In this document: positions 3,737 to 43,449 of the stretch, one piece after another | Numbering within the stretch: position 1 is the stretch's first letter | How the letters are laid out: each line of letters opens with the position of its first letter | IMG/VR virus record: IMGVR_UViG_3300037714_000077 | Coordinates: 1 to 43,449 of that record | DNA length: 43,449 nucleotides | Reading direction: 5' to 3' (one strand) | Source of the DNA: a virus | Taxonomy: Duplodnaviria; Caudoviricetes | Program-made: the position numbers and the translations under genes | Notes under the pieces: model-generated | The model's input: the letters and a program-made list of their open reading frames with translations, nothing else | The model's database searches: none | What the model was told of the DNA's origin: nothing

Positions 3737-5132
3737 CCTGACCGAGGCCATCGCCACCTTCCGGCACGATCCGGCGGTATTCCTGCGGGTCATGCTGGGC
3801 GTGGAGCGGCCGGAGGATCACCAACTCGAGGTCATGCGCGGCGTTGCTGCTGGCGAGAGACGTGTGTCCATGCGATCCGGGCGGCGAGTCGGGAAAACCG
3901 CGCTGCTGGACTGGCTCTCGATCTGGTATCCCATGACGCGGCCGGATGCCAGAGTACTAGTAACCGCTCCGTCATCGGCCCAGCTCGAGGACGCCTACAT
4001 CCCCGGCTTCCGGCAGTGGGCGCAGAATCTTCCGCCCGAGATCTACCAAATGTGGAGCATCACCGCCGATCGCTTCGTGTTCCGCATGGTTGAGCAGCAG
4101 GGATTCGAGAACTTCGTCACAGTCAGAACCGCCAGAGCAGATTCCCCCGAATCCCTGCAAGGCATCAACGCCGAAAACGTCTTGGTGCTGGTCGATGAGG
4201 CCGCGGGCGTTGCGGACATTAACTTCGAGGCGATCTCCGGCTCGCTGGCGGCCGAAAAGGCGTGTCTGGTCCTGACCGGCAACCCAAACCGGCCCACGGG
4301 CTACTTCTACGAGACGCACACCCGTCTCGCCGACCACTGGCACACGGTCCACGTCAATTCCGAGGAATCGCGGCTCGTTTCCCCCGAATGGATCGAGGAG
4401 TGCCAGATCAAGTGGGGGCGGGACTCCAACGCCTACCGGATTCACGTTCTCGGCGAGTTCCCGACCGATGAGGAGGATACGGTCATCCCCGTGCATCTGG
4501 TCGAGGCGGCACGCGGACGGGATGTTCACCCCTTCGGCACGGTTGTCTGGGGCGTCGACGTGGCGCGGTTCGGAAGTGACAAGACGGCGCTCTGCAAGCG
4601 CCAGCGGAACGCCGTCATCGAGCCGGTCAGGGTGTGGGACAAGAAGGACACAATGGAGGTCGTCGGCATCATCCAGAACGAGTGGAACGTGACTCCCACG
4701 CAGATGCGGCCGACCGACATCTTCGTGGACTCGATCGGCGTCGGCGGCGGTGTGGCGGATAGGCTCCGGGAACTGGGCCTGCCGGCCGTCGACGTGAACG
4801 TCTCCGAACTGCCCGCCAACCCCGGAAGCCTCGGGGACCGCCTCCGGGACGACCTGTGGCTCCAGGTACGCGCATGGCTGGAGGGCCGGGACGTGTCCCT
4901 GCCGGCGAATGACGAGAGACTCCGGGCCGAACTGATTATGCCCCGCATCGGCTACACGTCGACCGGCAAGATTAAGGTCGAATCCAAGGATAAGATGCGG
5001 TCCCGTGGGAAAGCCTCGCCAAACGCGGGCGACGCGCTCTGCCTCACGTTCAGCGGCGCAATGGCGACCACGATGGGCAAGAGGTTCGACCGCAAAGTGG
5101 CCATTAAACGCAACATAAGGGGGATTGTATGA
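3717..5132 (+). CDS. terL: Terminase large subunit
   Basis: Walker A SGRRVGKT, Walker B VLVDEA, TGNP, nuclease GVDVARFGSD, VDSIGVGGGV, SPNAGDAL. Confidence 0.96.
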   Translation: MPEVIPDLTEAIATFRHDPAVFLRVMLGVERPEDHQLEVMRGVAAGERRVSMRSGRRVGKTALLDWLSIWYPMTRPDARVLVTAPSSAQLEDAYIPGFRQWAQNLPPEIYQMWSITADRFVFRMVEQQGFENFVTVRTARADSPESLQGINAENVLVLVDEAAGVADINFEAISGSLAAEKACLVLTGNPNRPTGYFYETHTRLADHWHTVHVNSEESRLVSPEWIEECQIKWGRDSNAYRIHVLGEFPTDEEDTVIPVHLVEAARGRDVHPFGTVVWGVDVARFGSDKTALCKRQRNAVIEPVRVWDKKDTMEVVGIIQNEWNVTPTQMRPTDIFVDSIGVGGGVADRLRELGLPAVDVNVSELPANPGSLGDRLRDDLWLQVRAWLEGRDVSLPANDERLRAELIMPRIGYTSTGKIKVESKDKMRSRGKASPNAGDALCLTFSGAMATTMGKRFDRKVAIKRNIRGIV

Positions 5133-10940: not shown

Positions 10941-11252
10941 ATGCAATGGATTCGGCGCACGATCTGGTTCGATGGCGAGAACTACAAGGCCGCGTCGGGT
11001 GCGGACATCAGTCAGGTCATCAATGACGCCCTCGTGCTGACGGCGAATCTGGGCGAGACGATCACCGTGGAAGTAGGCGGTGACGATCTCGAAGTGGCAC
11101 CGGGCGCTGACCCGACCAAGCTCCGCGCGCTCGTGGAGAAGGGCGCAGACGCAAAGAAGGCGGCAGAGGCGCGGCGCGAGGCAAAGAAGCTCAAGAAGCA
11201 GCAGGACGCAGAGGACGAGGAAATCGAACGCGAACTGGGCATCCGCGAGTGA
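10941..11252 (+). CDS. Hypothetical protein
   Basis: AGGAGG RBS; charged C-terminal helix. Confidence 0.7.
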   Translation: MQWIRRTIWFDGENYKAASGADISQVINDALVLTANLGETITVEVGGDDLEVAPGADPTKLRALVEKGADAKKAAEARREAKKLKKQQDAEDEEIERELGIRE

Positions 11253-15645: not shown

Positions 15646-16693
15646 CGGGGCGACAACGAACCTGGCATTGGTCCTCCCCGAGGTCGGCGCATCTGCCGAC
15701 ACATGGGGCGCGAAGCTCAACAGCAACTTCATCGATCTGGATGCGCTGTTCGATGCGACCGGCGCGAATCTGGGGCTCGACCATCTCCCGTTCGGCACCG
15801 CGCGTCAGCTTCTCCAGACGAACGCGGGCGCTACGGCGGCAGAGTACACGAGCAACGTCGACGTTCCGGGCACGCTGGATGTTACCGGCGCCGCGACACT
15901 GGACAGCACACTGGGGGTGACGGGAGCCGCCACGCTTGCATCGACGCTGGGGGTGACGGGCGCCGCTACGCTGTCGTCGACGCTGGGGGTCACGGGCGCG
16001 GCCACGCTGTCGGCCACGCTAGCCGTCACCGGAGCCGCTACGCTGTCGAGCACGCTCAGTGTCGCGGGGGCCGTGACGCTTACCGCGGCCTCCGGGTTGA
16101 TCGCGAGCAACACGGCGGACGGCTCAGACTCCAAGTCGGTCGCGCTGACAGGTGGCGGGGCACTCAGTACCGCTCGCGGCGCCTTTGTTTTCGCTTGCGG
16201 GAACGAGCACGCGACTCTCCCCGGCCTTATTCAGGTCGGAGCTGGGAATGTCTCGGGCGCGGCCCTCCAGCTTATGACAGCCGGTACGGAACGACTCGGC
16301 ATCTCGCACGCGGGCGCCGTCACAATCACCGGCACGTTGGGCGTTACAGGTGCCGTGACGCTCACGGACACGCTCGCATGGGGCGGCGGCGCTGCAATCG
16401 CGTCGAGCGACGACCTGACCGACAACGAGATCCTGACGGGCACGACGACATGGCAGCCCGGGGCGGGCACGGTGAACGCGAACGAGGGCGTTCAGACTAC
16501 CGTAGCGGTCGTAGGCGCAGCGGTCGGCGACCTCGTGGTTGTGGCGCAGGTGTTTCAGGCGGACGTCAGTTCCCTCATCAGCGCAGCATGGGTCACGTCG
16601 GCCGATCTGGTCGGGATCTCTGTCAGGAACGTGAGCGGTACGAATGCGACGACCACGAGCCGCGCGCAGCGCGTCTTTGTCATTAAGCCCTGA
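15638..16693 (+). CDS. Tail fibre protein
   Basis: TTNLALVLPEVGASADTWGAKLNSNF head-binding-like start; 12-aa TLGVTGAATLxS repeats. Confidence 0.8.
   Translation: MADGATTNLALVLPEVGASADTWGAKLNSNFIDLDALFDATGANLGLDHLPFGTARQLLQTNAGATAAEYTSNVDVPGTLDVTGAATLDSTLGVTGAATLASTLGVTGAATLSSTLGVTGAATLSATLAVTGAATLSSTLSVAGAVTLTAASGLIASNTADGSDSKSVALTGGGALSTARGAFVFACGNEHATLPGLIQVGAGNVSGAALQLMTAGTERLGISHAGAVTITGTLGVTGAVTLTDTLAWGGGAAIASSDDLTDNEILTGTTTWQPGAGTVNANEGVQTTVAVVGAAVGDLVVVAQVFQADVSSLISAAWVTSADLVGISVRNVSGTNATTTSRAQRVFVIKP
15871..16085 (+). repeat. About 6 tandem 36-bp coding repeats in the tail fibre
   Basis: Repeated TL(D/G/A/S)V(T/A)GA(A/V)TL units. Confidence 0.8.
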
Positions 16694-29990: not shown

Positions 29991-30214
29991 GAACCGCCGC
30001 AGAGGACATGCAGGCCGATGATGACCGGGCGTATCGGGAGATGCTGCACGATAACCGCATCTCGCAGGAAGGGGAGAAGCGTGCCGACGACGCGCTGTAC
30101 GAGACGGGCGTCGTGGAGCTGAACGAGGATCAGGCGCGCGCAGTGAAGCGGTTCTGGGCCGACTGGGATGAGGATGAGGACGCGCGCAGGCTGGACGAGG
30201 CGAGGGGATACTAA
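29987..30214 (+). CDS. Acidic hypothetical protein
   Basis: Coupled; D/E-rich; precedes the recombinase. Confidence 0.6.
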   Translation: MRTAAEDMQADDDRAYREMLHDNRISQEGEKRADDALYETGVVELNEDQARAVKRFWADWDEDEDARRLDEARGY

Positions 30215-30891
30215 TGGAGCACTCAGAGTCTATAGGGGCGCTCGCGTCGGCGCTGGCGAAGGCGCAGGGCGAGATAGAGAACGCGCACAAGACATCGGAC
30301 AACCCGTTCTTCCGCAGCAAGTACGCCGACCTTGCCGAGATCATCAACACGGCGCGGCCGGTGCTGGCGAAGCACGGACTGTCGGTGGTGCAGATTCCCG
30401 GCATGGACGGCGGGTCGGTATCCGTCGAGACGGTCCTGCTGCACGAGTCAGGGGAATGGCTGTCCGGTGTCAGCGCGGCACCGATGTCGAAGCAGTACAA
30501 GAAGGATGGCGGGGAGTTGCCGCCGAGTCCGCAGGCGGTCGGTTCGTCCATCACCTACCTGCGTCGGTATTCCCTCGCCGCACTGTGCGCCATCGCGCAG
30601 GAAGATGACGACGGTAATGCCGCCAGCCGCCCGCGTCGTGAGGAAGCGGCCGAGCCCGAACCCGATGCAGAGACGGGGCGTCTCGCCGTGCCCGCAACAT
30701 CGGGGCAGGTGGACCTGCTGACTCGCCTGATGCAGTCGCACGTCTTTACCAAAAAGGAGCGGGCGGATATAAACGACATGCTGTCGCGCGGAATCTCGAA
30801 GGGCAAGGCAATGGAAGCCATCGACCACGCGCAGAAGACGCTTGCAGACCGCAAGGCCATCGAGAAGTCGGACCAGCGGGAATCGGCATGA
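30214..30891 (+). CDS. erf: ERF-family single-strand annealing recombinase
   Basis: NPFFRSKYADL, HESGEW, GSSITYLRRYSLAAL...EDDDGN. Confidence 0.93.
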   Translation: MEHSESIGALASALAKAQGEIENAHKTSDNPFFRSKYADLAEIINTARPVLAKHGLSVVQIPGMDGGSVSVETVLLHESGEWLSGVSAAPMSKQYKKDGGELPPSPQAVGSSITYLRRYSLAALCAIAQEDDDGNAASRPRREEAAEPEPDAETGRLAVPATSGQVDLLTRLMQSHVFTKKERADINDMLSRGISKGKAMEAIDHAQKTLADRKAIEKSDQRESA

Positions 30892-31142: not shown

Positions 31143-31360
31143 GCGGAGTACGAGCGGAGTTTGCGCTGAAGAATCCTGATGCGCTGGAGGCGACGCTGAC
31201 TCTCACGATGACGATGGGTGAGTGGCGTCGGCTCCTGTCGCAGATTGTAGAGGCCGGCGTCGACGTCAGGTATCCCGCGTGGAAGGTGCTGGATGCGATG
31301 CGCGCCGTAATCAGTGCTGGCGACCAGCACTTCGCCGCCGAGCACGAGATACCGTCATGA
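31139..31360 (+). CDS. Hypothetical protein
   Basis: AGGAGG RBS; coupled ORF. Confidence 0.6.
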   Translation: MSGVRAEFALKNPDALEATLTLTMTMGEWRRLLSQIVEAGVDVRYPAWKVLDAMRAVISAGDQHFAAEHEIPS

Positions 31361-31413
31361 CCATCGACCTCGACGCCGTCCTGTCAGCCTCCGGACTTGG
31401 AGGTGAGAGGTGA
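31357..31413 (+). pseudogene. 18-codon shell of gene 31993-32244
   Basis: MTIDLDAVLSAS+GLGGER are exactly the first 12 and last 6 residues of the 83-aa paralog. Confidence 0.75.
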
Positions 31414-31799
31414 GCGAGCGAGTGGACAAGCCCACATCCGCATGCCCGTGGTGCAAGTCTGCCGAACACTTAAACGTCCAGCGCAACGATGGGGACGATA
31501 GGTCCGTGGTGTGCTGGAAGTGTTGCGCGAGCGGCCCGATGGTTTCTGGGCGTCATAGCCGAAAGGCCGCCATTGCTGCATGGAACCAGTCCGCGCAGCC
31601 CGCAGCAGGATCATTGGCAGCGCTGCGCGCGCTGGAGGAGTATGTCAGCAGGTTCGGCGGCATCGACAACGGGTACTGCAAAGAGTGCGGAGTTGATCGC
31701 TCGTTCGACACACACGGCAATCGCCAGCCATGTGCCAACGACGACTGTCTGAGCAATAAGGCAGCGTCCGCGCTGGCGCGGTATCGGGACGTGCGATGA
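31410..31799 (+). CDS. Lar-family restriction alleviation-like protein fused to a second module
   Basis: CPWC...VVCWKCCASGP...AAIAAWN, then QPAAGS linker. Confidence 0.7.
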   Translation: MSERVDKPTSACPWCKSAEHLNVQRNDGDDRSVVCWKCCASGPMVSGRHSRKAAIAAWNQSAQPAAGSLAALRALEEYVSRFGGIDNGYCKECGVDRSFDTHGNRQPCANDDCLSNKAASALARYRDVR

Positions 31800-31996
31800 C
31801 ACCGTACTACGAGGACGGGGCGGTGACGATCTATCACGGGGAAGCGCTGTCCGTGCTGGCGTCGCTGCCTAGCGAGTCGGTCGGGGCATTACTGACTGAC
31901 CCGGGCCGCAAGGCCATCGGCATCGAGATCGAGGAACGCTACTGCGAAATCGCAGCGCGTCGGCTGTCGCAGGAAGTGCTGGAGTTGGGAGCATGA
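31796..31996 (+). pseudogene. Internally deleted beta-class DNA methyltransferase
   Basis: YYEDGAVTIYHGEAL...LLTDP fused directly to GRKAIGIEIEERYCEIAARRLSQ; PPY and FxGxG core missing. Confidence 0.8.
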
Positions 31997-32244
31997 CCAT
32001 CGACCTTGACGCCGTCCTGTCCGCCTCCCGCTGGCTTGCTGTAATGGCTCTGGGCTTCGCTCTAGGCTTCATAGCCTGCACGCTGCTGTCAGGTAACGCA
32101 GCAGAGCATGCGCGCGTGGCAGAGCGCCAGCGGGATAGCGCCATCGCCGTTCGGGACGTGTGCACCGCGGCGCTCGGTTTGGCCGTGCTGGAGGCTGAGA
32201 TGGCAGCGGACATCGTGTTCGAGGGACTTGGAGGTGAGAGGTGA
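31993..32244 (+). CDS. Small membrane protein
   Basis: One TM segment; coupled. Confidence 0.65.
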   Translation: MTIDLDAVLSASRWLAVMALGFALGFIACTLLSGNAAEHARVAERQRDSAIAVRDVCTAALGLAVLEAEMAADIVFEGLGGER

Positions 32245-32754: not shown

Positions 32755-32993
32755 ACGACGACGCATACACTGCCATCCCCGAGGTAGAAGCCTGCATCCG
32801 TCAGGATGAGAGGGACGCACGCAATGGCAGGGAATGGTACGCACAGGCGGCGTTGCTGTGGCGGATAATGGAACTGCGCGATCAGGTGGAAGTCGTGCGG
32901 AAGGAAACCGACGCCGCTCGGATGGAAGTCATCATGTGGCGGCTCACCGCTGCGGCAGGCTGGGCGGTCATCATCGTGAAGTTGCTGACATGA
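32751..32993 (+). CDS. Hypothetical protein with C-terminal TM
   Basis: YTAIPEVEACIR N-terminus; hydrophobic C-terminus. Confidence 0.6.
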   Translation: MNDDAYTAIPEVEACIRQDERDARNGREWYAQAALLWRIMELRDQVEVVRKETDAARMEVIMWRLTAAAGWAVIIVKLLT

Positions 32994-33211
32994 CCGAATC
33001 AGAGCGTCAGGTCGCCCGCTACCAGTGGCTGACATCGGGCGATGTCGCGGAGCAGTGTGGCGGCGTCAGTCTGGCGCAGGTCTACGGCTGGTTCGAGGAC
33101 GGTGAACTGGAAGCCATTGATGTGCGCAGCAAGGGCGCGAAGCAACCCGACTGGCGGACTCGGCAGGAGTGGGTCGACGCTTTCTTGGCGAGGCGCAGCA
33201 ATGCCGCGTAG
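32990..33211 (+). CDS. xis: Excisionase-like HTH protein
   Basis: WLTSGDVAEQCGGVSLAQVYGWFEDGELEA...WR....VDAFL; directly upstream of the recombinase. Confidence 0.8.
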   Translation: MTESERQVARYQWLTSGDVAEQCGGVSLAQVYGWFEDGELEAIDVRSKGAKQPDWRTRQEWVDAFLARRSNAA

Positions 33212-34439
33212 CCGAAGGCGCAAGCCGGTCGCGGGTGTTCGCTGGCGCAGTGGCGTCGCCTACTTCGAGAAGGAGCACAAGCGCCTCGCAGGTGGCCGCA
33301 TCTATCGCACGCTCGGCACGTCGGACGAGACGCTGGCAGCGGAGTACGCGGGAGCTCTTGCGACCCTGATGCAGCGCGGGGACTGGCACGTCATCGAGGC
33401 GTGGCGGGATGGCTCACTGCACATCACCGACATCGCCCGCATCGTGCGTGAGGGTGATTATGCCAAGCTCCGGAAGTTGTCGACGACAGGCACCAGGCTG
33501 GGCGAGGCGGTTGAGCGGTTCCTGCGTCGGAGCGAGGCCACGCTGACGGAGAAGTCGGCCGGCACGTACCGCTACGGCATGGACCTGCTGCTCGAGCACT
33601 TCGGAGCCGGGCTTCCTATGGCGACGCTCACGACGGAGCAGGCAGAGGCGTTCCTGCACGGCCCCAAGGCGAGCAATCAGGACGAGGTGTGGAGCGCGAA
33701 TACGCAGGCATCGGCCCGCACGATGTACAAGGCGCTCTGGCAGATGGTCATCGATGAGGAAGCGGAGGCCGCGCACATCGCGGACGCGAGTCCTACCGTC
33801 GTCCTGAACCCTTGGAGGCCTGCCCGGGTGCCGAAGCGCCGACAGACCCGCCATGCCTTCCTGTCGGCCGAACAGTGGCGCACGCTGATCGATCACCCCG
33901 AGGTGGTCGGCACGCGGGAGGCGGCGTTCCTTGGCTGCGCCTGTCTGGCAGGTCTCCGGCAAATGGAGATCGTGCATCTGCGCCCCGGCATGGACGTGGA
34001 CAGCTCCGTCATCCGCGTGCAGGACCGGAAGGGCGAGGAAGCATGGAGCACAAAGACAGAGAACGGGCAGCGTGAGGTGATGGTCGTGGCCGAGCTCGGA
34101 CGGCTAATCGATCGGCACGTCCAGTTGGGGTTCAGCGGCGAGCGGTACCTGTTCCGTGCCTACGGCGAGGATCGGCCCATATCGCACACGGCGGCCATCA
34201 AGTGGACGCGGCGAGCGTTCGAGGCGGCGGGTATCCGGTACGGCCGGAAGGGTGACGCCCTGACCCTGCATTCCCTGAGGCACACGTTCGGTACCTGGAT
34301 GGCGCAGGACGGCGTGCCCTTCCATGTGATCGCGGAGTTGATGGGCAATACCGCGGAAGTCGTGATGTGGACCTACGCACACCACGCACCCCATGACCTC
34401 GACAAGGCGATGGACAGCATCCGGCAGAGGACGGTATGA
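33201..34439 (+). CDS. int: Tyrosine recombinase / integrase
   Basis: GLRQME (R), TKT (K), HSLRH (HxxR), LMGN (N at the usual H/W site), TYAH (Y). Confidence 0.93.
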   Translation: MPRSRRRKPVAGVRWRSGVAYFEKEHKRLAGGRIYRTLGTSDETLAAEYAGALATLMQRGDWHVIEAWRDGSLHITDIARIVREGDYAKLRKLSTTGTRLGEAVERFLRRSEATLTEKSAGTYRYGMDLLLEHFGAGLPMATLTTEQAEAFLHGPKASNQDEVWSANTQASARTMYKALWQMVIDEEAEAAHIADASPTVVLNPWRPARVPKRRQTRHAFLSAEQWRTLIDHPEVVGTREAAFLGCACLAGLRQMEIVHLRPGMDVDSSVIRVQDRKGEEAWSTKTENGQREVMVVAELGRLIDRHVQLGFSGERYLFRAYGEDRPISHTAAIKWTRRAFEAAGIRYGRKGDALTLHSLRHTFGTWMAQDGVPFHVIAELMGNTAEVVMWTYAHHAPHDLDKAMDSIRQRTV

Positions 34440-35245
34440 GCGAGCGACAGGCGGGCCGCGAACTGGATGCGGAGGTGGCCGAGAAGGTGATGGGGTTGGA
34501 TGTGCGCGGGAAGGCTTGCGCAATCTTCGTGGAGGGAGAATGGAGCATCCACGCCGATAGCGAGCCGGACGGGTGGGCGTGCTACGCTGGCATTGAGCCC
34601 GTCTACCGGATCGACCGCGAATATGTGACCCCGCCGCCTGAGCGCCGCACGGACTGCATCGGGCGTAGGCCGCGCGTCACTGCGCAGATGGTCGAGGTAT
34701 GGTATCAGAAGGAACTGGCCGCATACGAACGCGACATTGAGCGATTCGGTTGCCACTCCCACGACCTCGACGTGGTACCGCTCTACTCCACCAACATCGC
34801 CGAAGCGATGCAGATCGTGGATCGCTGGACAGCGCGGGGGTACCGCGTCTCGCTGGGCACGACGTTCAGCCTTGACGATGGTAACGCAAATGGCTGGCAT
34901 GTGGACATTGGCGGCATAGATGCGCGCGTGTACGATCTGGCCCAACTCCCGCTCGCCATCAGTCTCGCTGCACTGTCCGCGGCGGACAAAGAGACGGAGG
35001 CCAGCATGAGGTACCGAAACGGATACACTTCCCCATACACAACCGGCGTTATGCCCGTGGTTTCCACATCTCCACCTTGTCCACACTACCACGCAGTATG
35101 TCGCATAACTGACGGTAAGTCTCACAAATCCTACAAGCGTGGATTGCGGTCCGATGGGCTGAAAGTGCCGTTTGGTACCCGAAGCGGATACAGTTGCCCC
35201 GACAGCATACCCCTGCCGGCCGGTCCTGCATGTGGGGCCACATGA
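34436..35245 (+). CDS. Phage ABA-sandwich-like protein with an atypical C-terminal extension
   Basis: AGRELDAEVAEKVMG...PLYSTNIAEAMQIV...PLAISLAAL; sequence after ~35006 is lower-GC and ends in GPACGAT. Confidence 0.7.
   Translation: MSERQAGRELDAEVAEKVMGLDVRGKACAIFVEGEWSIHADSEPDGWACYAGIEPVYRIDREYVTPPPERRTDCIGRRPRVTAQMVEVWYQKELAAYERDIERFGCHSHDLDVVPLYSTNIAEAMQIVDRWTARGYRVSLGTTFSLDDGNANGWHVDIGGIDARVYDLAQLPLAISLAALSAADKETEASMRYRNGYTSPYTTGVMPVVSTSPPCPHYHAVCRITDGKSHKSYKRGLRSDGLKVPFGTRSGYSCPDSIPLPAGPACGAT
35010..35200. other. Candidate att-like recombination region
   Basis: Imperfect direct repeats GGTACCGAAACGGATACACTTCCCC (35010-34) and GGTACCCGAAGCGGATACAGTTGCCCC (35174-200) around a lower-GC core. 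Confidence 0.4.
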
Positions 35246-36315
35246 GCTTCACGATTCACGCGGGCGACTGCCTCGATGCCATGCGGGCGATGCATACGGA
35301 TTCGGTGGCCGCCATCGTAACTGATCCACCCTACGGCCTCTCGTTCATGTCGTACGCGTGGGACCGGGGCGTGCCGCCGGTTGCGGTCTGGCAGGAGGCG
35401 TACCGTGTGCTGCGTCCCGGCGGGCGGCTGCTGTGCTTCGCCGGCACGCGGACCATGCACCGCATGTGGTGCAACATCGAGGATGCCGGGTTCACCATCG
35501 AGGATACGGTTGCGTGGATGTACGGGTCCGGCTTCCCGAAACATCGCAGCAAACTAAAGCCCGCATACGAGCCGATCTGCGTAGCGCGGAAGGGGCCGTC
35601 GACGCCGTTGAACATCGATGCGTGCCGCATAGAGACGGGCGACGAACTGGTGCGCCCATCCGTCGAACGCCATGACAACACCGTCTTCGGGAACGGGTTG
35701 GGGGCGGGGACGCAATCCACACTTGTCGGTCGCTGGCCCGCAAACGTGATGCTGGATGAGGAAGCGGCGCGGCTGCTGGATGAGCAGAGCGGGGAAAGCG
35801 TGAGCACAGGAGGCACCAAGACGCGGGGTGCACTAGGTGATCGCGTGTACGGTCAGTTTGTGGATCGCGGGGAGCCTATCGCCAATCACGGCGGCCTTGG
35901 TGACGCCGGCGGCGCATCCCGATTCTTCTACGTCGCGAAGGCGAGCCGGGCCGAGCGCAACGCAGGGCTGGAGGGACAGCCAATGCGGGCGCCATCGCAG
36001 GAGTATGGCATGGGCGCCGTTGAGGGCGATTCGCGCAAGCCCACCAAGTGCACCGCTAGCCGCCCCGTCGAGAACAATCACCCGACCGTAAAGCCCGTCG
36101 ACCTGATGCGCCATCTCGTCCGCCTCGTCACCCCCACCGATGGCGTCGTTCTCGATCCCTTCATGGGAAGCGGCACAACCGGCGTTGCGTGCGTGCTGGA
36201 GGCCCGCCGCTTTATCGGGTGCGAGCTGGACCCGGAGTATGCGGAGATCGCGCGCAGACGCATTGCAAACACGCCGCCTAGCCTATTCGGCGGTCCTGCA
36301 TGTGGGGCCACATGA
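35242..36315 (+). CDS. DNA methyltransferase, beta class (N6A/N4C), copy 1
   Basis: TDPPY, HPTVKP, DPFMGSGTTG. Confidence 0.93.
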   Translation: MSFTIHAGDCLDAMRAMHTDSVAAIVTDPPYGLSFMSYAWDRGVPPVAVWQEAYRVLRPGGRLLCFAGTRTMHRMWCNIEDAGFTIEDTVAWMYGSGFPKHRSKLKPAYEPICVARKGPSTPLNIDACRIETGDELVRPSVERHDNTVFGNGLGAGTQSTLVGRWPANVMLDEEAARLLDEQSGESVSTGGTKTRGALGDRVYGQFVDRGEPIANHGGLGDAGGASRFFYVAKASRAERNAGLEGQPMRAPSQEYGMGAVEGDSRKPTKCTASRPVENNHPTVKPVDLMRHLVRLVTPTDGVVLDPFMGSGTTGVACVLEARRFIGCELDPEYAEIARRRIANTPPSLFGGPACGAT

Positions 36316-36926
36316 GCACGTGGCAGCCGATTGCAACAGCGCCGAAGGACGGGACGAAGGTTGTGTTGCTCGGCTACGTCGGCGGTGACGCTCACGGTCG
36401 CCCGCTCCGCGCTTGCATCGGCCAGTGGCATGACCCCGAGACCGAACCACCCAACCTCATGTGTGCCGGTTGGCTGTGGACATCGCCGGGCTACACCGAC
36501 CGCATGGAGCCGACGCACTGGATGCCGCTGCCAATCGTTGACCGCGGTCCTGCATATGGGGGAGAGGTGAGCGAGCCAATTAAATCCCGCTGCTGTTGTC
36601 CGCGATACGTCACGCGGAAGGAATGCATCCGCATCCGTTACGAGGGTAGGGGCAGAGTGGACCCCTACGACGAGTGCGTGTGCTGCTGCCACGATGAGCA
36701 GGAAGATGACGAATACGATGCGTTGACAGAAAGCGAAAGGGTGGACGAACGAGCGGTGGGCGCGCAAACGGCTCGCCACCCGCCTATGACCGACATGGTC
36801 ACGGTCCCGCGCTCATACCTGCAAACCCTTCTGTATGGCGTTCGGCAGACTGAGCGCAACGCCATCCGTACCCGTGAACGACTGGAGCGTGCGTTGATCG
36901 GCGGTCCTGCATGTGGGGCCACATGA
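36312..36926 (+). CDS. DUF551-like protein fused in frame to a Cys-rich module
   Basis: WQPIATAPKDGT...PTHWMPLP, then read-through of the variant repeat; possible internal GTG start at 36567. Confidence 0.75.
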   Translation: MSTWQPIATAPKDGTKVVLLGYVGGDAHGRPLRACIGQWHDPETEPPNLMCAGWLWTSPGYTDRMEPTHWMPLPIVDRGPAYGGEVSEPIKSRCCCPRYVTRKECIRIRYEGRGRVDPYDECVCCCHDEQEDDEYDALTESERVDERAVGAQTARHPPMTDMVTVPRSYLQTLLYGVRQTERNAIRTRERLERALIGGPACGAT

Positions 36927-38107
36927 GCTACACGATTGTCGCGGGCGACTGCCTCGACGCGATGCGAGCGATGCTGCCGGACTCCGTGGACGCGATCGTA
37001 ACCGATCCGCCCTACGGCCTCTCGTTCATGAGCAAGGAATGGGATCGGGGCGTGCCGCCGGTTGCGGTCTGGCAGGAGGCGTTGCGCGTGCTCAAGCCCG
37101 GAGGGCGGCTGCTGTGCTTCGCCGGCACGCGGACGATGCACCGCATGTGGTGCAACATCGAGGATGCCGGGTTCACCATCGAGGACACTATTGCGTGGAT
37201 GTACGGCTCCGGCTTCCCGAAACACAGGAGCAAGTTGAAGCCCGCATACGAGCCCATCTGCGTAGCGCGGAAGGGGCCGGTGTCGGAGTTGAACATCGAT
37301 GAGTGCCGGATCGCGGGCGACGAGGACGGGTCGCGCAATCGCCCACCGTCCCGACTTGGCAGCGGGCGCACATACGCGCAGGACGAGTGGACGCACAATG
37401 TGGTAGTCGAGCGACAGGACACAACCGGCAAAGGCCGCTGGCCCGCAAACGTAATGCTGACGCACCATGCAGATTGCCAACTGGTCGGAACACGGTGGGT
37501 GCGCAAGGATCACGGAGACGGCGATGCGGACGGGATGGAGACAATCCCCGCGTGGCTCTGTCACCTCGACTGCCCTGTGCGACTACTGGATGAGCAGAGC
37601 GGGCGACGCGGGGACCTCGTAGGCGGCGTCGGTGTCGGTGGACACATCGGCTACCGCGGCGGTGCGGCTGGCATAGTGCGGACAGGATTCAACGACACGG
37701 GCGGCGCCAGCAGATTCTTCTATGTGGCGAAGGCCAGCCGTGCCGAGCGCAACGCAGGGCTAGGAGACCTGCCGCTACGGCCATCCGGCACGATGGAGGA
37801 TGACGGATACGACTGGTCGCGTGAAGTCGAGCGCGGACGCAAGCCGCGCGACACTCGCAATCAGAACCACCATCCCACCGTGAAGCCTGTAGACCTGATG
37901 CGCCATCTCGTCCGCCTCATCACCCCCACCGATGGCGTCGTTCTCGATCCCTTCATGGGAAGCGGCACCACCGGCGTTGCGTGCGTGCTGGAGGCCCGCC
38001 GCTTTATCGGGTGCGAGCTGGACCCGGAGTATGCGGAGATCGCCCGCAGACGGATTGCAAACACGCCTCCTAGCCTATTCGGTGCTGCATGTGGGGAGGC
38101 AACGTGA
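36923..38107 (+). CDS. DNA methyltransferase, beta class (N6A/N4C), copy 2
   Basis: TDPPY, HPTVKP, DPFMGSGTTG; ends nearly identical to copy 1. Confidence 0.93.
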   Translation: MSYTIVAGDCLDAMRAMLPDSVDAIVTDPPYGLSFMSKEWDRGVPPVAVWQEALRVLKPGGRLLCFAGTRTMHRMWCNIEDAGFTIEDTIAWMYGSGFPKHRSKLKPAYEPICVARKGPVSELNIDECRIAGDEDGSRNRPPSRLGSGRTYAQDEWTHNVVVERQDTTGKGRWPANVMLTHHADCQLVGTRWVRKDHGDGDADGMETIPAWLCHLDCPVRLLDEQSGRRGDLVGGVGVGGHIGYRGGAAGIVRTGFNDTGGASRFFYVAKASRAERNAGLGDLPLRPSGTMEDDGYDWSREVERGRKPRDTRNQNHHPTVKPVDLMRHLVRLITPTDGVVLDPFMGSGTTGVACVLEARRFIGCELDPEYAEIARRRIANTPPSLFGAACGEAT

Positions 38108-38562
38108 GCCGATTCTCGGGCGAGTACATAGCCGACCGCAAGACGCTGCACAACCGCGTCCGCAAAGAGGCCGGCAACCGCTGCATCCGGTGCGGGCATC
38201 CGGCAGGCGACACGTTCTCGGAGCACGCGCCCGAGCGGTGCGACGACCGCTGCACGCATCCGCGCGATGGCAAGCTGCGCATCCTGACCGTCCATCACCT
38301 GACCGGTGCAAAGGGCGATAACCGCTGGTGGAACCTGCTCGCCTTATGCCAGTCGTGTCACCTGACGATTCAGGGCCGCGTCATCCCCGAGCGCCCGTGG
38401 CTATTCCAGCATTCCGAATGGTTCGTGCCCTACGTCTGCGGCTTCTATGCCTCGTACTACGGCGACATCGACATCACGCGCGCTGAGGCTGAGGCCGACC
38501 CGCAACGGTGGCTCGCGCTCGGACAGCCGTGGCTCGGCGGTCCTGCACGTGGGGCCACATGA
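38104..38562 (+). CDS. HNH endonuclease
   Basis: CIRC...LTVHHL...DN...NLLALCQSCH. Confidence 0.85.
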   Translation: MSRFSGEYIADRKTLHNRVRKEAGNRCIRCGHPAGDTFSEHAPERCDDRCTHPRDGKLRILTVHHLTGAKGDNRWWNLLALCQSCHLTIQGRVIPERPWLFQHSEWFVPYVCGFYASYYGDIDITRAEAEADPQRWLALGQPWLGGPARGAT

Positions 38563-38972
38563 GCGGGCCAACGGTGACAACCCCCATCCCGAAACCCGGC
38601 CCCCGGATGAAGTGCAAGCGTTGCGGCGGCTGCGGCACTGAGCCCGACTGGCGCGAGTTGGGTGATGCCGTGCGGACTGCACGGACGCAGCGCGGCATGG
38701 GCCTTCGTGAACTGGCGCGCGCCGTGGACTGCTCGCCGGCATACGTATCGGACGTGGAGGCCGGCCGACGCGGTGGCGGTCTCGGCGGCCCCAAGACACG
38801 CGCAATCCTGACGTATCTGGGAATCACGCCACACACAGGAGGCGGACGAATGGGCTACGTCCACGAACTCAACGGCGAGTGGTTCGCAATGCCGTCAGGC
38901 AATGGCAGTGCGGTCGGGCCGTACTCGACGCGGGAGCAGGCGCAGCGTTGGCTGGATGGTGACGGACAGTGA
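38559..38972 (+). CDS. XRE-family HTH protein with N-terminal CxxCxGxG motif
   Basis: RTQRGMGLRELARAVDCSPAYVSDVEAGRR. Confidence 0.85.
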   Translation: MSGPTVTTPIPKPGPRMKCKRCGGCGTEPDWRELGDAVRTARTQRGMGLRELARAVDCSPAYVSDVEAGRRGGGLGGPKTRAILTYLGITPHTGGGRMGYVHELNGEWFAMPSGNGSAVGPYSTREQAQRWLDGDGQ

Positions 38973-40978: not shown

Positions 40979-41332
40979 ATGTCTGACACATTGAAGGCGA
41001 GACTGGAGGCAGCGTGGCGTGAAGGATTCGGCGCCGGACGGGACTTCGCGTTCAACGTCGCGTACAACACGCCCACGCATGGCGAGGAAGCGCGGTGGAC
41101 TGATTCGGATACCCGTGCCGCATCCGCTCTCCCCGATGAGCCGAGCGCAGCAGGTGTGCCGTGCCAATGGGCGCAGGATGGTGCGGGCGAATCCACATGG
41201 GCGTCGTCGTGTGGCCAATACTTCGTGATGAACGACGACGCCGATTCACCCGACGACTTTATGAACTTCTGCTGCTTCTGTGGCAAGTCGCTGGCAGCGG
41301 TGCCCTACGTGGAGGATTCCGACGATGAGTGA
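40979..41332 (+). CDS. Mosaic hypothetical protein with Zn ribbon
   Basis: AGGAGG RBS; ASALPDEPSAA linker; FCCFCG. Confidence 0.7.
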   Translation: MSDTLKARLEAAWREGFGAGRDFAFNVAYNTPTHGEEARWTDSDTRAASALPDEPSAAGVPCQWAQDGAGESTWASSCGQYFVMNDDADSPDDFMNFCCFCGKSLAAVPYVEDSDDE

Positions 41333-42222: not shown

Positions 42223-42655
42223 GGTACATTCGCCGGAACAAGAAAAGCTGTGGGGTATCCTTGTGGAGGTGGCGGGCGGAAACTCGGGTCTCGTGTTGGA
42301 AGCCCTGAGACATGGCGGTCGGTGGCGCCCATGGGGTCGTGCGGTGCCGACGATTCAAGACCTGCTATTCTACATCGTGGACCACCCGCGAGCGGGCGTT
42401 CACCCGCAGCCTCGGGGGCCGATAATGGCTGACGTTCATGAGCCTGTGCGTGAGTGGTTTACCGCCGCAGACAGCGAGCTAAAGGTCTGCCCGTTCTGCT
42501 ACACGTCCGCGCTGGAAGGCGAGACGCAATGCACGCGTTGTCACGCCGAGCCCGCCGAGCCGGGAAGCCGGGGCCTATACTCGCAACGTGCCGCCGCATC
42601 CGCTCTCCCCGATGAGCCGAGCGCAGCCGTGCATAAGGCCGCGACTGTCCCATGA
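42215..42655 (+). CDS. Mosaic hypothetical protein with Zn ribbon
   Basis: AGGAGG RBS; CPFC...CTRC; ASALPDEPSAA linker. Confidence 0.6.
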   Translation: MVRVHSPEQEKLWGILVEVAGGNSGLVLEALRHGGRWRPWGRAVPTIQDLLFYIVDHPRAGVHPQPRGPIMADVHEPVREWFTAADSELKVCPFCYTSALEGETQCTRCHAEPAEPGSRGLYSQRAAASALPDEPSAAVHKAATVP

Positions 42656-43373: not shown

Positions 43374-43449
43374 CAACGAGCCTGCATCGTTCGTGATCGA
43401 AGGCATGGTGGTTCCCCGTGCCCTGCGGAAGTGGCTTGCATCGAATCCG
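43374..43449 (+). other. 76-nt exact copy of 1856-1931 after a G10 run (probable assembly artefact)
   Basis: Identical to an internal part of the kinase gene; joined at a homopolymer. Confidence 0.75.

Follow-up and report, generated by a model that had tools for sequence, protein, structure and literature searches.

Six copies of a 27-bp stop/start joint between accessory genes of a temperate phage: a probable homology linker

The IMG/VR virus record IMGVR_UViG_3300037714_000077 (Duplodnaviria; Caudoviricetes), analysed over its whole length of 43,449 nucleotides (nt) and hereafter called the window, is a temperate phage in which a repeat of 27 base pairs (bp) stands at six joints between genes or gene modules of the early operon, downstream of the integrase gene int. 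On this single contig, late-type genes (terminase, SU10-type portal and capsid, amidase) accompany a plus-strand early operon that starts at about 28,000 and encodes an ERF recombinase, an Xis-like protein, the tyrosine integrase Int, two methylases, an HNH endonuclease, a replication protein and a VRR-NUC protein (Table 1). The catalytic residues of Int were intact, with the Xis gene adjacent. Full-length Int homologues (43-44% identity) were encoded at 10 Longimicrobiales loci among the 24 loci returned and, because they sit in Longimicrobiales genomes, the phage host likely belongs to the Gemmatimonadota. An earlier interpretation made without database searches (the sequence-only reading) had named several of these genes, and its labels were confirmed for the HTH_17 Xis-like protein, the phage integrase, two N6_N4 methylases, the HNH nuclease and the ABA sandwich; the DUF551 label was recovered through homologues only, 10 of the 13 tested matching PF04448 and the window protein itself giving no match.

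As that reading had claimed, the repeat occurred at six gene or module boundaries, with three exact copies, one copy with a single mismatch and two variants. All six were on the plus strand within 3.4 kb, the first beginning 782 nt past the int stop codon, in agreement with the claimed distance of about 0.8 kb. The 18-nt core gave four matches at no more than three mismatches, compared to a mean of 0.06 in shuffled sequences, and none of the 100 shuffles reached four. The two variants (copies 3 and 5) kept 16 of the 17 left-half bases and both ended in TGAGC; copy 3, given what its last bases share with an upstream joint (Table 1), is a hybrid of two joint families. The common protein ends were also found as described, GPACGAT in three open reading frames (ORFs) together with GAACGEAT and GPARGAT, except that the ABA-like ORF reaches its GPACGAT only through read-through of 79 further codons past the ABA domain.

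Table 1. Coordinates of the features discussed, with the observations that bear on each assignment.
Feature	Position	Strand	Basis or remark
ERF single-strand annealing recombinase	30214..30891	+	PF04404, E = 1.9e-26; phrog_155, E = 1.3e-40
Unrelated joint-repeat families upstream of int	31356..31419	+	Partners at 31992, 32224 and 36562; enclose an 18-codon collapsed copy of gene 31993-32244
Xis-like HTH gene (HTH_17), overlapping the int start	32990..33211	+	PF12728, E = 6.9e-5, under the curated cut-off; a homologue precedes int in locus L034
Prophage-type tyrosine integrase (R253/H357/R360/Y392)	33201..34439	+	PF00589; invariant residues; homologues at prophage ends
ABA-sandwich-like gene, fused in frame to the attP-crossing frame	34436..35005	+	PF18066, residues 101-180; differs in relatives
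Candidate attP	35006..35220	.	Lower GC, arm-like direct repeat, central dyad; resembles L034 and prophage ends
Joint repeat copy 1, exact	35221..35247	+	Other genes behind it in X2 and X3 contigs
DNA methylase 1, N6/N4 family, DPPY and DPFMGSG intact	35242..36315	+	PF01555, E = 4.8e-38; alignment with methylase 2
Joint repeat copy 2, exact	36291..36317	+	31 identical nt with copy 4
DUF551-like module (residues 1-80) fused in frame to Cys-rich module C (from 36567)	36312..36926	+	
Joint repeat copy 3, variant, without stop	36545..36572	+	Left half of the family; right 15 nt also present at 31405, in an unrelated joint
Joint repeat copy 4, exact	36902..36928	+	
DNA methylase 2	36923..38107	+	Protein 62% identical to methylase 1; the ends nearly match, the middles differ
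Joint repeat copy 5, variant	38080..38109	+	One additional codon, carries GGAGG, without dyad, frame kept
HNH endonuclease	38104..38562	+	76%-identical homologues elsewhere end without the repeat
Joint repeat copy 6	38538..38564	+	One mismatch, which breaks a dyad pair
HTH (XRE-like) gene behind the last copy	38559..38972	+	PF13560, E = 2.8e-9
Unrelated 35-nt exact module repeat downstream	41117..41151	+	Partner at 42593-42627

The repeat had been described as supplying stop, start and coupling in one unit, which was true of every copy other than copy 3. The spacing from the G-run to the start codon was 4 nt in four copies and 7 nt in copy 5, both of which keep the frame, whereas the spacing of 5 nt in copy 3 (1 nt longer) leaves no stop codon and fuses two modules in frame. 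These spacing variants fit selection on frame and coupling and not a recombinase site. The ATGA coupling itself was present but not special to the repeat, as 26 of the 35 neighbouring gene pairs in the early operon (gene calls made by hand) shared the same -4 stop/start overlap. No match to a plus-strand promoter or terminator was found at any copy.

Homologues of the genes lying between the copies lacked the common tail: HNH relatives stop where the repeat begins and methylase relatives stop at a shared SLF motif, which indicates that the tail is a DNA joint and not a protein signal. The tail was also considered as a protein motif and rejected, with three loose matches among 118 foreign methylases and one among 149 module homologues. 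Copy 3 sits at a true module joint, since the two halves of the 204-residue fusion ORF have separate homologues, residues 1-80 and 90-141 each matching small stand-alone proteins. The two methylase paralogues were both intact, with near-identical ends and swapped middles, and relatives carried further middles; their specificity regions may be exchanged.

Gene exchange at the repeat with coupling kept, as the sequence-only reading had proposed, was seen in relatives. Three runs contained part of the stretch (X1, share 0.96 and possibly its source; X2, 0.09; X3, 0.06), the X2 and X3 contigs being aligned at 80% likeness. A 475-nt X2 contig (depth 3.5) matched 35002-35242 with 21 differences and two gaps, covering the candidate phage attachment site (attP) and copy 1, and after 18 more letters reached module C at 36583. 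Neither methylase 1 nor the DUF551-like module was present, module C had its own start, and the implied spacing was 3 nt longer (7 nt). In X3, a 657-nt contig (depth 4.8) matched 35209-35308 with 11 differences and later a methylase C-terminus, which places a different methylase behind copy 1; X3 also held pieces nearly identical to methylase 1. Among the X2 and X3 contigs, matching began only at 35002-35004; the gene located between int and att is therefore different as well. The fixed gene order that would have spoken against a cassette system was not found among relatives. In an X2 contig carrying a methylase, two middle segments were replaced, with no repeat copy nearby.

The genome contains several families of joint repeats, of which the sequence-only reading had described this one. 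Exact repeats of at least 20 nt numbered 15 in the early region (nine between methylase paralogues, three from this repeat and three from other families), compared to at most one in 30 simulations, and one in the late region. The other families (31356/31992, 31393/32224, 31592/43014/43146, 41117/42593 and 42674/42938) lie before int and far after it, and have no dyads. Two collapsed genes kept only their start and end, namely the 18-codon copy at 31357-31413 and a 66-codon methylase at 31796-31996.

The stretch between the ABA-like gene and copy 1 had a lower guanine-cytosine (GC) content than its surroundings (0.54 vs about 0.64) and contained an arm-like direct repeat (35010-35027 and 35174-35192) that occurs nowhere else in that orientation, with a dyad midway at about 35094-35111. 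Locus L034 had the same layout at the same position, with arms 186 nt apart, and we infer that this stretch would serve as attP. The related Longimicrobiales elements pointed the same way: the DNA common to them ended about 78 nt past the int match, with unrelated flanks, and five such elements were present in one genome. The upstream DNA of seven elements was traced and the other end placed for five (the left ends of L028 and L030 were not placed). These five span 41.0-47.5 kb, their Int homologues being 43-44% identical to the window Int; a 9-nt arm-like word was present in both ends of all five, and a word of 7-10 nt was duplicated at the borders of three. Judged by these borders, the Longimicrobiales elements are prophages whose att follows int directly. 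Which gene came first behind the att arm varied among the five, and in two of them a methylase started through a G-run and ATGAGC, without a dyad; copy 1 thus resembles the usual joint between att and the first gene in this phage family. The array starts no more than 30 nt from the second candidate att arm and has no sequence in common with the arms. Overall, Int likely acts on a separate attP just before copy 1 and not on the repeat.

Longimicrobiales prophages of 41-48 kb (L024-L032, L035; G001-G004) occurred at unrelated sites, with as many as five in one genome and no more than 7-10 nt duplicated, and on this pattern of insertion their integrase has a relaxed target choice. In one of them (L032, 11147-12287), int was split near its 3' end by about 1.1 kb of other DNA.

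A 79-codon open frame crosses the candidate attP (35006-35245), with its own GGAGG, and ends in copy 1, while the other two frames have three stops each. Comparable att-crossing frames were found in L034 (82 codons, at 4578), L048 (169 codons, at 11191) and L033 (at least 60 codons to the contig end, at 1441), three loci that appear to be unintegrated, and a frame of 81-123 codons was present in all five prophage left arms inspected (L140, L144, L146, L148 and L150), which are close kin and were counted once. At their ends these frames overlap the stop or start of their neighbours; the peptides look unrelated, and that of the window had no family match. A run of 70 codons without a stop has a chance of about 0.05-0.13 per locus, and there were counterexamples: downstream of int, L036 (a partial Int match) lacked a long frame and L024 had one of just 36 codons. 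Based on these reading frames, the attP frame may act as a bridge for ribosomes, which integration would sever. Should the frame be under selection, integration would interrupt the translation relay to the methylase and replication genes, and the occurrence of such coupled open frames over attP at several homologous loci is perhaps the less familiar part of this work. In the literature searched, which subscription papers mostly lay outside and whose silence is not proof of absence, no description of the phage family or of a bridge frame across attP was found. The nearest case is the attP inside a repressor gene of CyranoPS, with integration-dependent immunity (bioRxiv 10.64898/2026.10.29.762952). 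In the accessible text of that preprint, the likeness is that integration would cut a translated frame at attP; the difference is that the frame there is the repressor gene, whereas here it encodes a non-conserved bridge peptide without a family match.

Taken together, we consider it probable that the 27-bp repeat couples genes as a stop/start joint and has been put to a second use, most plausibly by ERF, as a homology linker of 27-31 bp. As a shared gene joint, it consists of tail codons, a G-run and an overlapping stop and start, and would hand ribosomes to the next gene; as a short homology patch, it would be the place where ERF swaps, adds or drops accessory genes. The joint may have arisen from the end of the attP-crossing frame and the start of the first gene behind it, after which incoming genes would have gained the tail by crossing over where the region near their own 3' ends had a few bases in common with it. 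With at least two copies present, annealing between copies in co-infecting phages or prophages could exchange whole genes, and selection would act on frame and coupling, not on the dyad. The exchanged products would keep the stop/start overlap and so, it is proposed, be expressed at once. The identity between window copies (27-31 bp) can be set beside the minimal pairing segment of 23-27 bp given for Red-beta, with D3 Erf equally efficient (PMC3945230), and the ERF gene lies 5 kb upstream. From its gene content and these repeat lengths, ERF is the likely driver of short-homology exchange. The sequence-only reading had left the driver of a phage-borne capture and shuffling system between Int and ERF-type recombination; the ERF part fits the evidence and the Int part does not.

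Several points weigh against this explanation. The figure of 23-27 bp belongs to Red-beta and would apply to the window ERF only by analogy. Three exact dyad-bearing copies right behind attP exceed what the model needs. The exchange evidence consists of two single contigs of low depth at 80% likeness, and no repeat-to-repeat joint was listed in X1, where contigs drop rare variants. No second assembled genome with the repeat was present among the records searched. The putative attP of this phage is recognised by position and anatomy, and in the attB search of 401 genomes five gave weak matches of 22-42 nt, about the chance level.

It is unlikely, in our assessment, that the copies remain from a handful of single duplication events and illegitimate joins, kept for their coupling, with no recurring exchange site. 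The repeat is private to the lineage, as this explanation would have it: in viral contigs a 16-mer gave 22 loci, none reaching into the right half, and a 22-mer gave no match; in metagenomes a 20-mer gave one match, inside a transporter-like gene and rejected as chance; and none of 5 and none of 401 genomes contained the repeat. Only that chance metagenome match came within five mismatches among 164 loci scanned, and the relatives of the HNH gene (27 loci) and of the replication protein (12 loci) were without the repeat. In one further locus (L006), a methylase and a 16-mer match lay 1.3 kb apart, which was treated as chance. The mosaic of related prophages likewise ends at ordinary coupled joints rather than at one motif: in eight stretches upstream of int, 58 of the 159 ends of shared blocks had a coupled joint no more than 25 nt away (24 expected), compared to 12 on an unrelated non-palindromic gene-end motif (2.7 expected; the motif was chosen after seeing the data and the ends are not independent). 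The 58 ends at coupled joints count in favour of the linker explanation as well. The lack of a repeat-to-repeat joint in X1 agrees with it as well. Against it stand the presence of six copies, three exact, after unrelated genes in a span of 3.4 kb, the two relatives that diverge at copy 1 and the existence of a hybrid copy.

The small early genes of related prophages (L025-L035, 1-8700) were strongly mosaic and had a gene-end repeat family of their own, and L031 carried tandem copies of a 546-nt module. Long tandem arrays also occurred in related phage loci (L025, 800-2179; L027, 9399-9652; L113, 7055-7600; units of 108, 12 and 9 nt, respectively).

The sequence-only reading had favoured an integron-like array, in which Int, with or without Xis, acts on the repeat and captures or shuffles promoterless genes behind attP. 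This we regard as very improbable, and the claim was not borne out by the integrase. The gap between the catalytic R and HxxR holds the insertion specific to IntI. In the window Int it spans 104 residues (R253 to H357), within the 104-116 residues of all 33 aligned rows, compared to about 96 in XerD and about 130 in the IntI profile (an estimate from matched stretches), and the insertion is absent. On the IntI model TIGR02249, Int scored 18.9 bits against a cut-off of 265 and three homologues scored 13.4-32.1 bits, and the structure ranking placed XerD/XerA above IntI4. A single-protein Int search of viral contigs gave no match, and an alignment-based search gave two full-length Int relatives among 64 loci; the homologues are prophage integrases with att directly downstream. 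The attC box motif (RYYYAAC ... GTTRRRY, as in the accessible text of PMC9892861) was absent as a pair within -150/+180 nt of all six copies, only two isolated words being found. The palindromic dyad on which the claim leaned was intact in three of the six copies and broken in the rest, in copy 6 by one substitution, with no compensatory change in any of the six pairs, and predicted DNA folds (n = 10; z from -0.71 to +1.25) were not better than shuffles. The repeat consequently lacks the anatomy of an attC site, having no box pairs, a broken dyad in half of its copies and folds not above shuffles. In addition, its spacing varies by whole codons, and analogous repeats without dyads occur upstream of int and far from it.

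In favour of an Int site, the array begins close to the inferred att arm, the dyad is present in the three exact copies and the gene content varies; phage attC arrays with methylases are also described (PMC9892861). Moreover, homologous integrases insert at many host sites that have little sequence in common (five such sites in one genome), which makes relaxed Int sites conceivable. It is nonetheless very improbable that an Int with relaxed target choice would use the dyad as a secondary site, stacking methylase and nuclease genes behind attP in a ribosome relay through attP; if true, this would be a phage-private cassette system without IntI and without attC. Where an integron would have attI and the promoter Pc beside its integrase, the stretch before the array resembles attP and gave no sigma-70-type match, although host promoters may differ. 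Judged by its profile scores, residue spacing and motifs, Int is not an IntI and the array does not belong to the integrons; a tyrosine recombinase next to a row of genes bounded by repeats is insufficient for an integron call.

A regulatory role of the dyad is very improbable. It would act as an operator or messenger RNA hairpin co-regulating the methylases and the HNH gene, with swapping secondary; the ribosome site could, for instance, stay hidden until an upstream ribosome opens it. In favour of this, the dyad overlaps the start codon and the G-run is paired in the RNA fold predicted for the exact copies; the last copy is followed by an HTH gene, and local RNA structure is raised as a means to enforce coupling in the accessible text of PMC6728339. 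Against this, the RNA folds (n = 6; z from -1.40 to +0.47) were no better than shuffles, the dyad is lost in half of the copies, and the equivalent joint in related prophages has no dyad. It is scarcely credible that alternative alleles were joined at the repeat during assembly to give a chimeric array: copies 2 and 4 with their identical bases break the contig graph, no piece spans the array and the methylase ends are near-identical, but in X1 the depths of the unique modules (13.0, 13.7 and 16.0) equal those of the flanks (13.2 and 14.6) and are not half of them, which speaks against this explanation, and copies 1, 3, 5 and 6 are each bridged by pieces without differences.

One X1 piece (36899-37075, 177 nt) had a depth of 25.3, about twice that of the flanks, which may reflect a second carrier or a contig-building effect. 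The last 76 bases of the record (43374-43449) duplicate 1856-1931 after a G run, and the record also opens with a G run; the terminal copy and the G runs are probably an assembly end effect. Tandem repeats of 36 nt were present at 15872-16087 in a structural or tail gene. The search for tRNA genes found none, and the Rfam search gave no credible match.

The probable linker function places the repeat among known systems: it works like the linker or boundary sequences of phages, and its exact sequence was unseen in the other assembled records searched. In the linker model (Botstein 1980, as summarised in PMC2839356) and in the boundary sequences and 29-bp repeat of mycobacteriophage LRRHood (PMC3029335), as far as their accessible text goes, short conserved border sequences likewise allow homologous exchange into a working context, with a similar length (27-31 vs 29 bp) and a position at gene ends; here, in contrast, one linker occurs six times in one operon, is wholly coding, leaves a common peptide tail and starts right behind attP. 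The PeSLs of T4-type phages (Arbiol et al. 2010, PMC2839356), which their authors themselves compare with integrons, are also repeats between accessory genes with copy-copy recombination and, in the accessible text, no dedicated recombinase identified, and mini-circles were shown for them. They differ as intergenic units of promoter and terminator, whereas the window repeat matched neither, is coding and acts at translation.

Rad52-like mosaicism (De Paepe et al. 2014, PMC3945230) offers an Erf-family recombinase, as encoded here, and a pairing length for Red-beta that the identity patch matches; in the accessible part of that study, lambda with Red, RecT or D3 Erf recombined longer diverged sequences, and neither a single 27-bp patch nor the window ERF was used. 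Integrons and phage attC arrays (Qi et al. 2023, PMC9892861) share a tyrosine recombinase near same-strand, apparently promoterless genes of variable content that include methylases. They differ, within the accessible text, in the IntI, GTTRRRY boxes and stable hairpin that are missing here, where the site is a 27-bp coding one and int, paired with an Xis gene, belongs to the same operon as the array and has its own putative att. The -4 overlap coupling (Huber et al. 2019, PMC6728339) resembles the joint in its ATGA overlap and in the intragenic run, similar to a ribosome site, in the upstream tail; compared with the accessible text, the difference here is that the same joint is copied verbatim among unrelated genes. 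The window would illustrate phage mosaicism by the linker model in a clean and compact form: the cargo consists of methylases and an HNH nuclease, the phage family comes from a phylum that has been little sampled, and the presence of the 27-bp patch, ERF and Int in one genome makes the driver directly testable.

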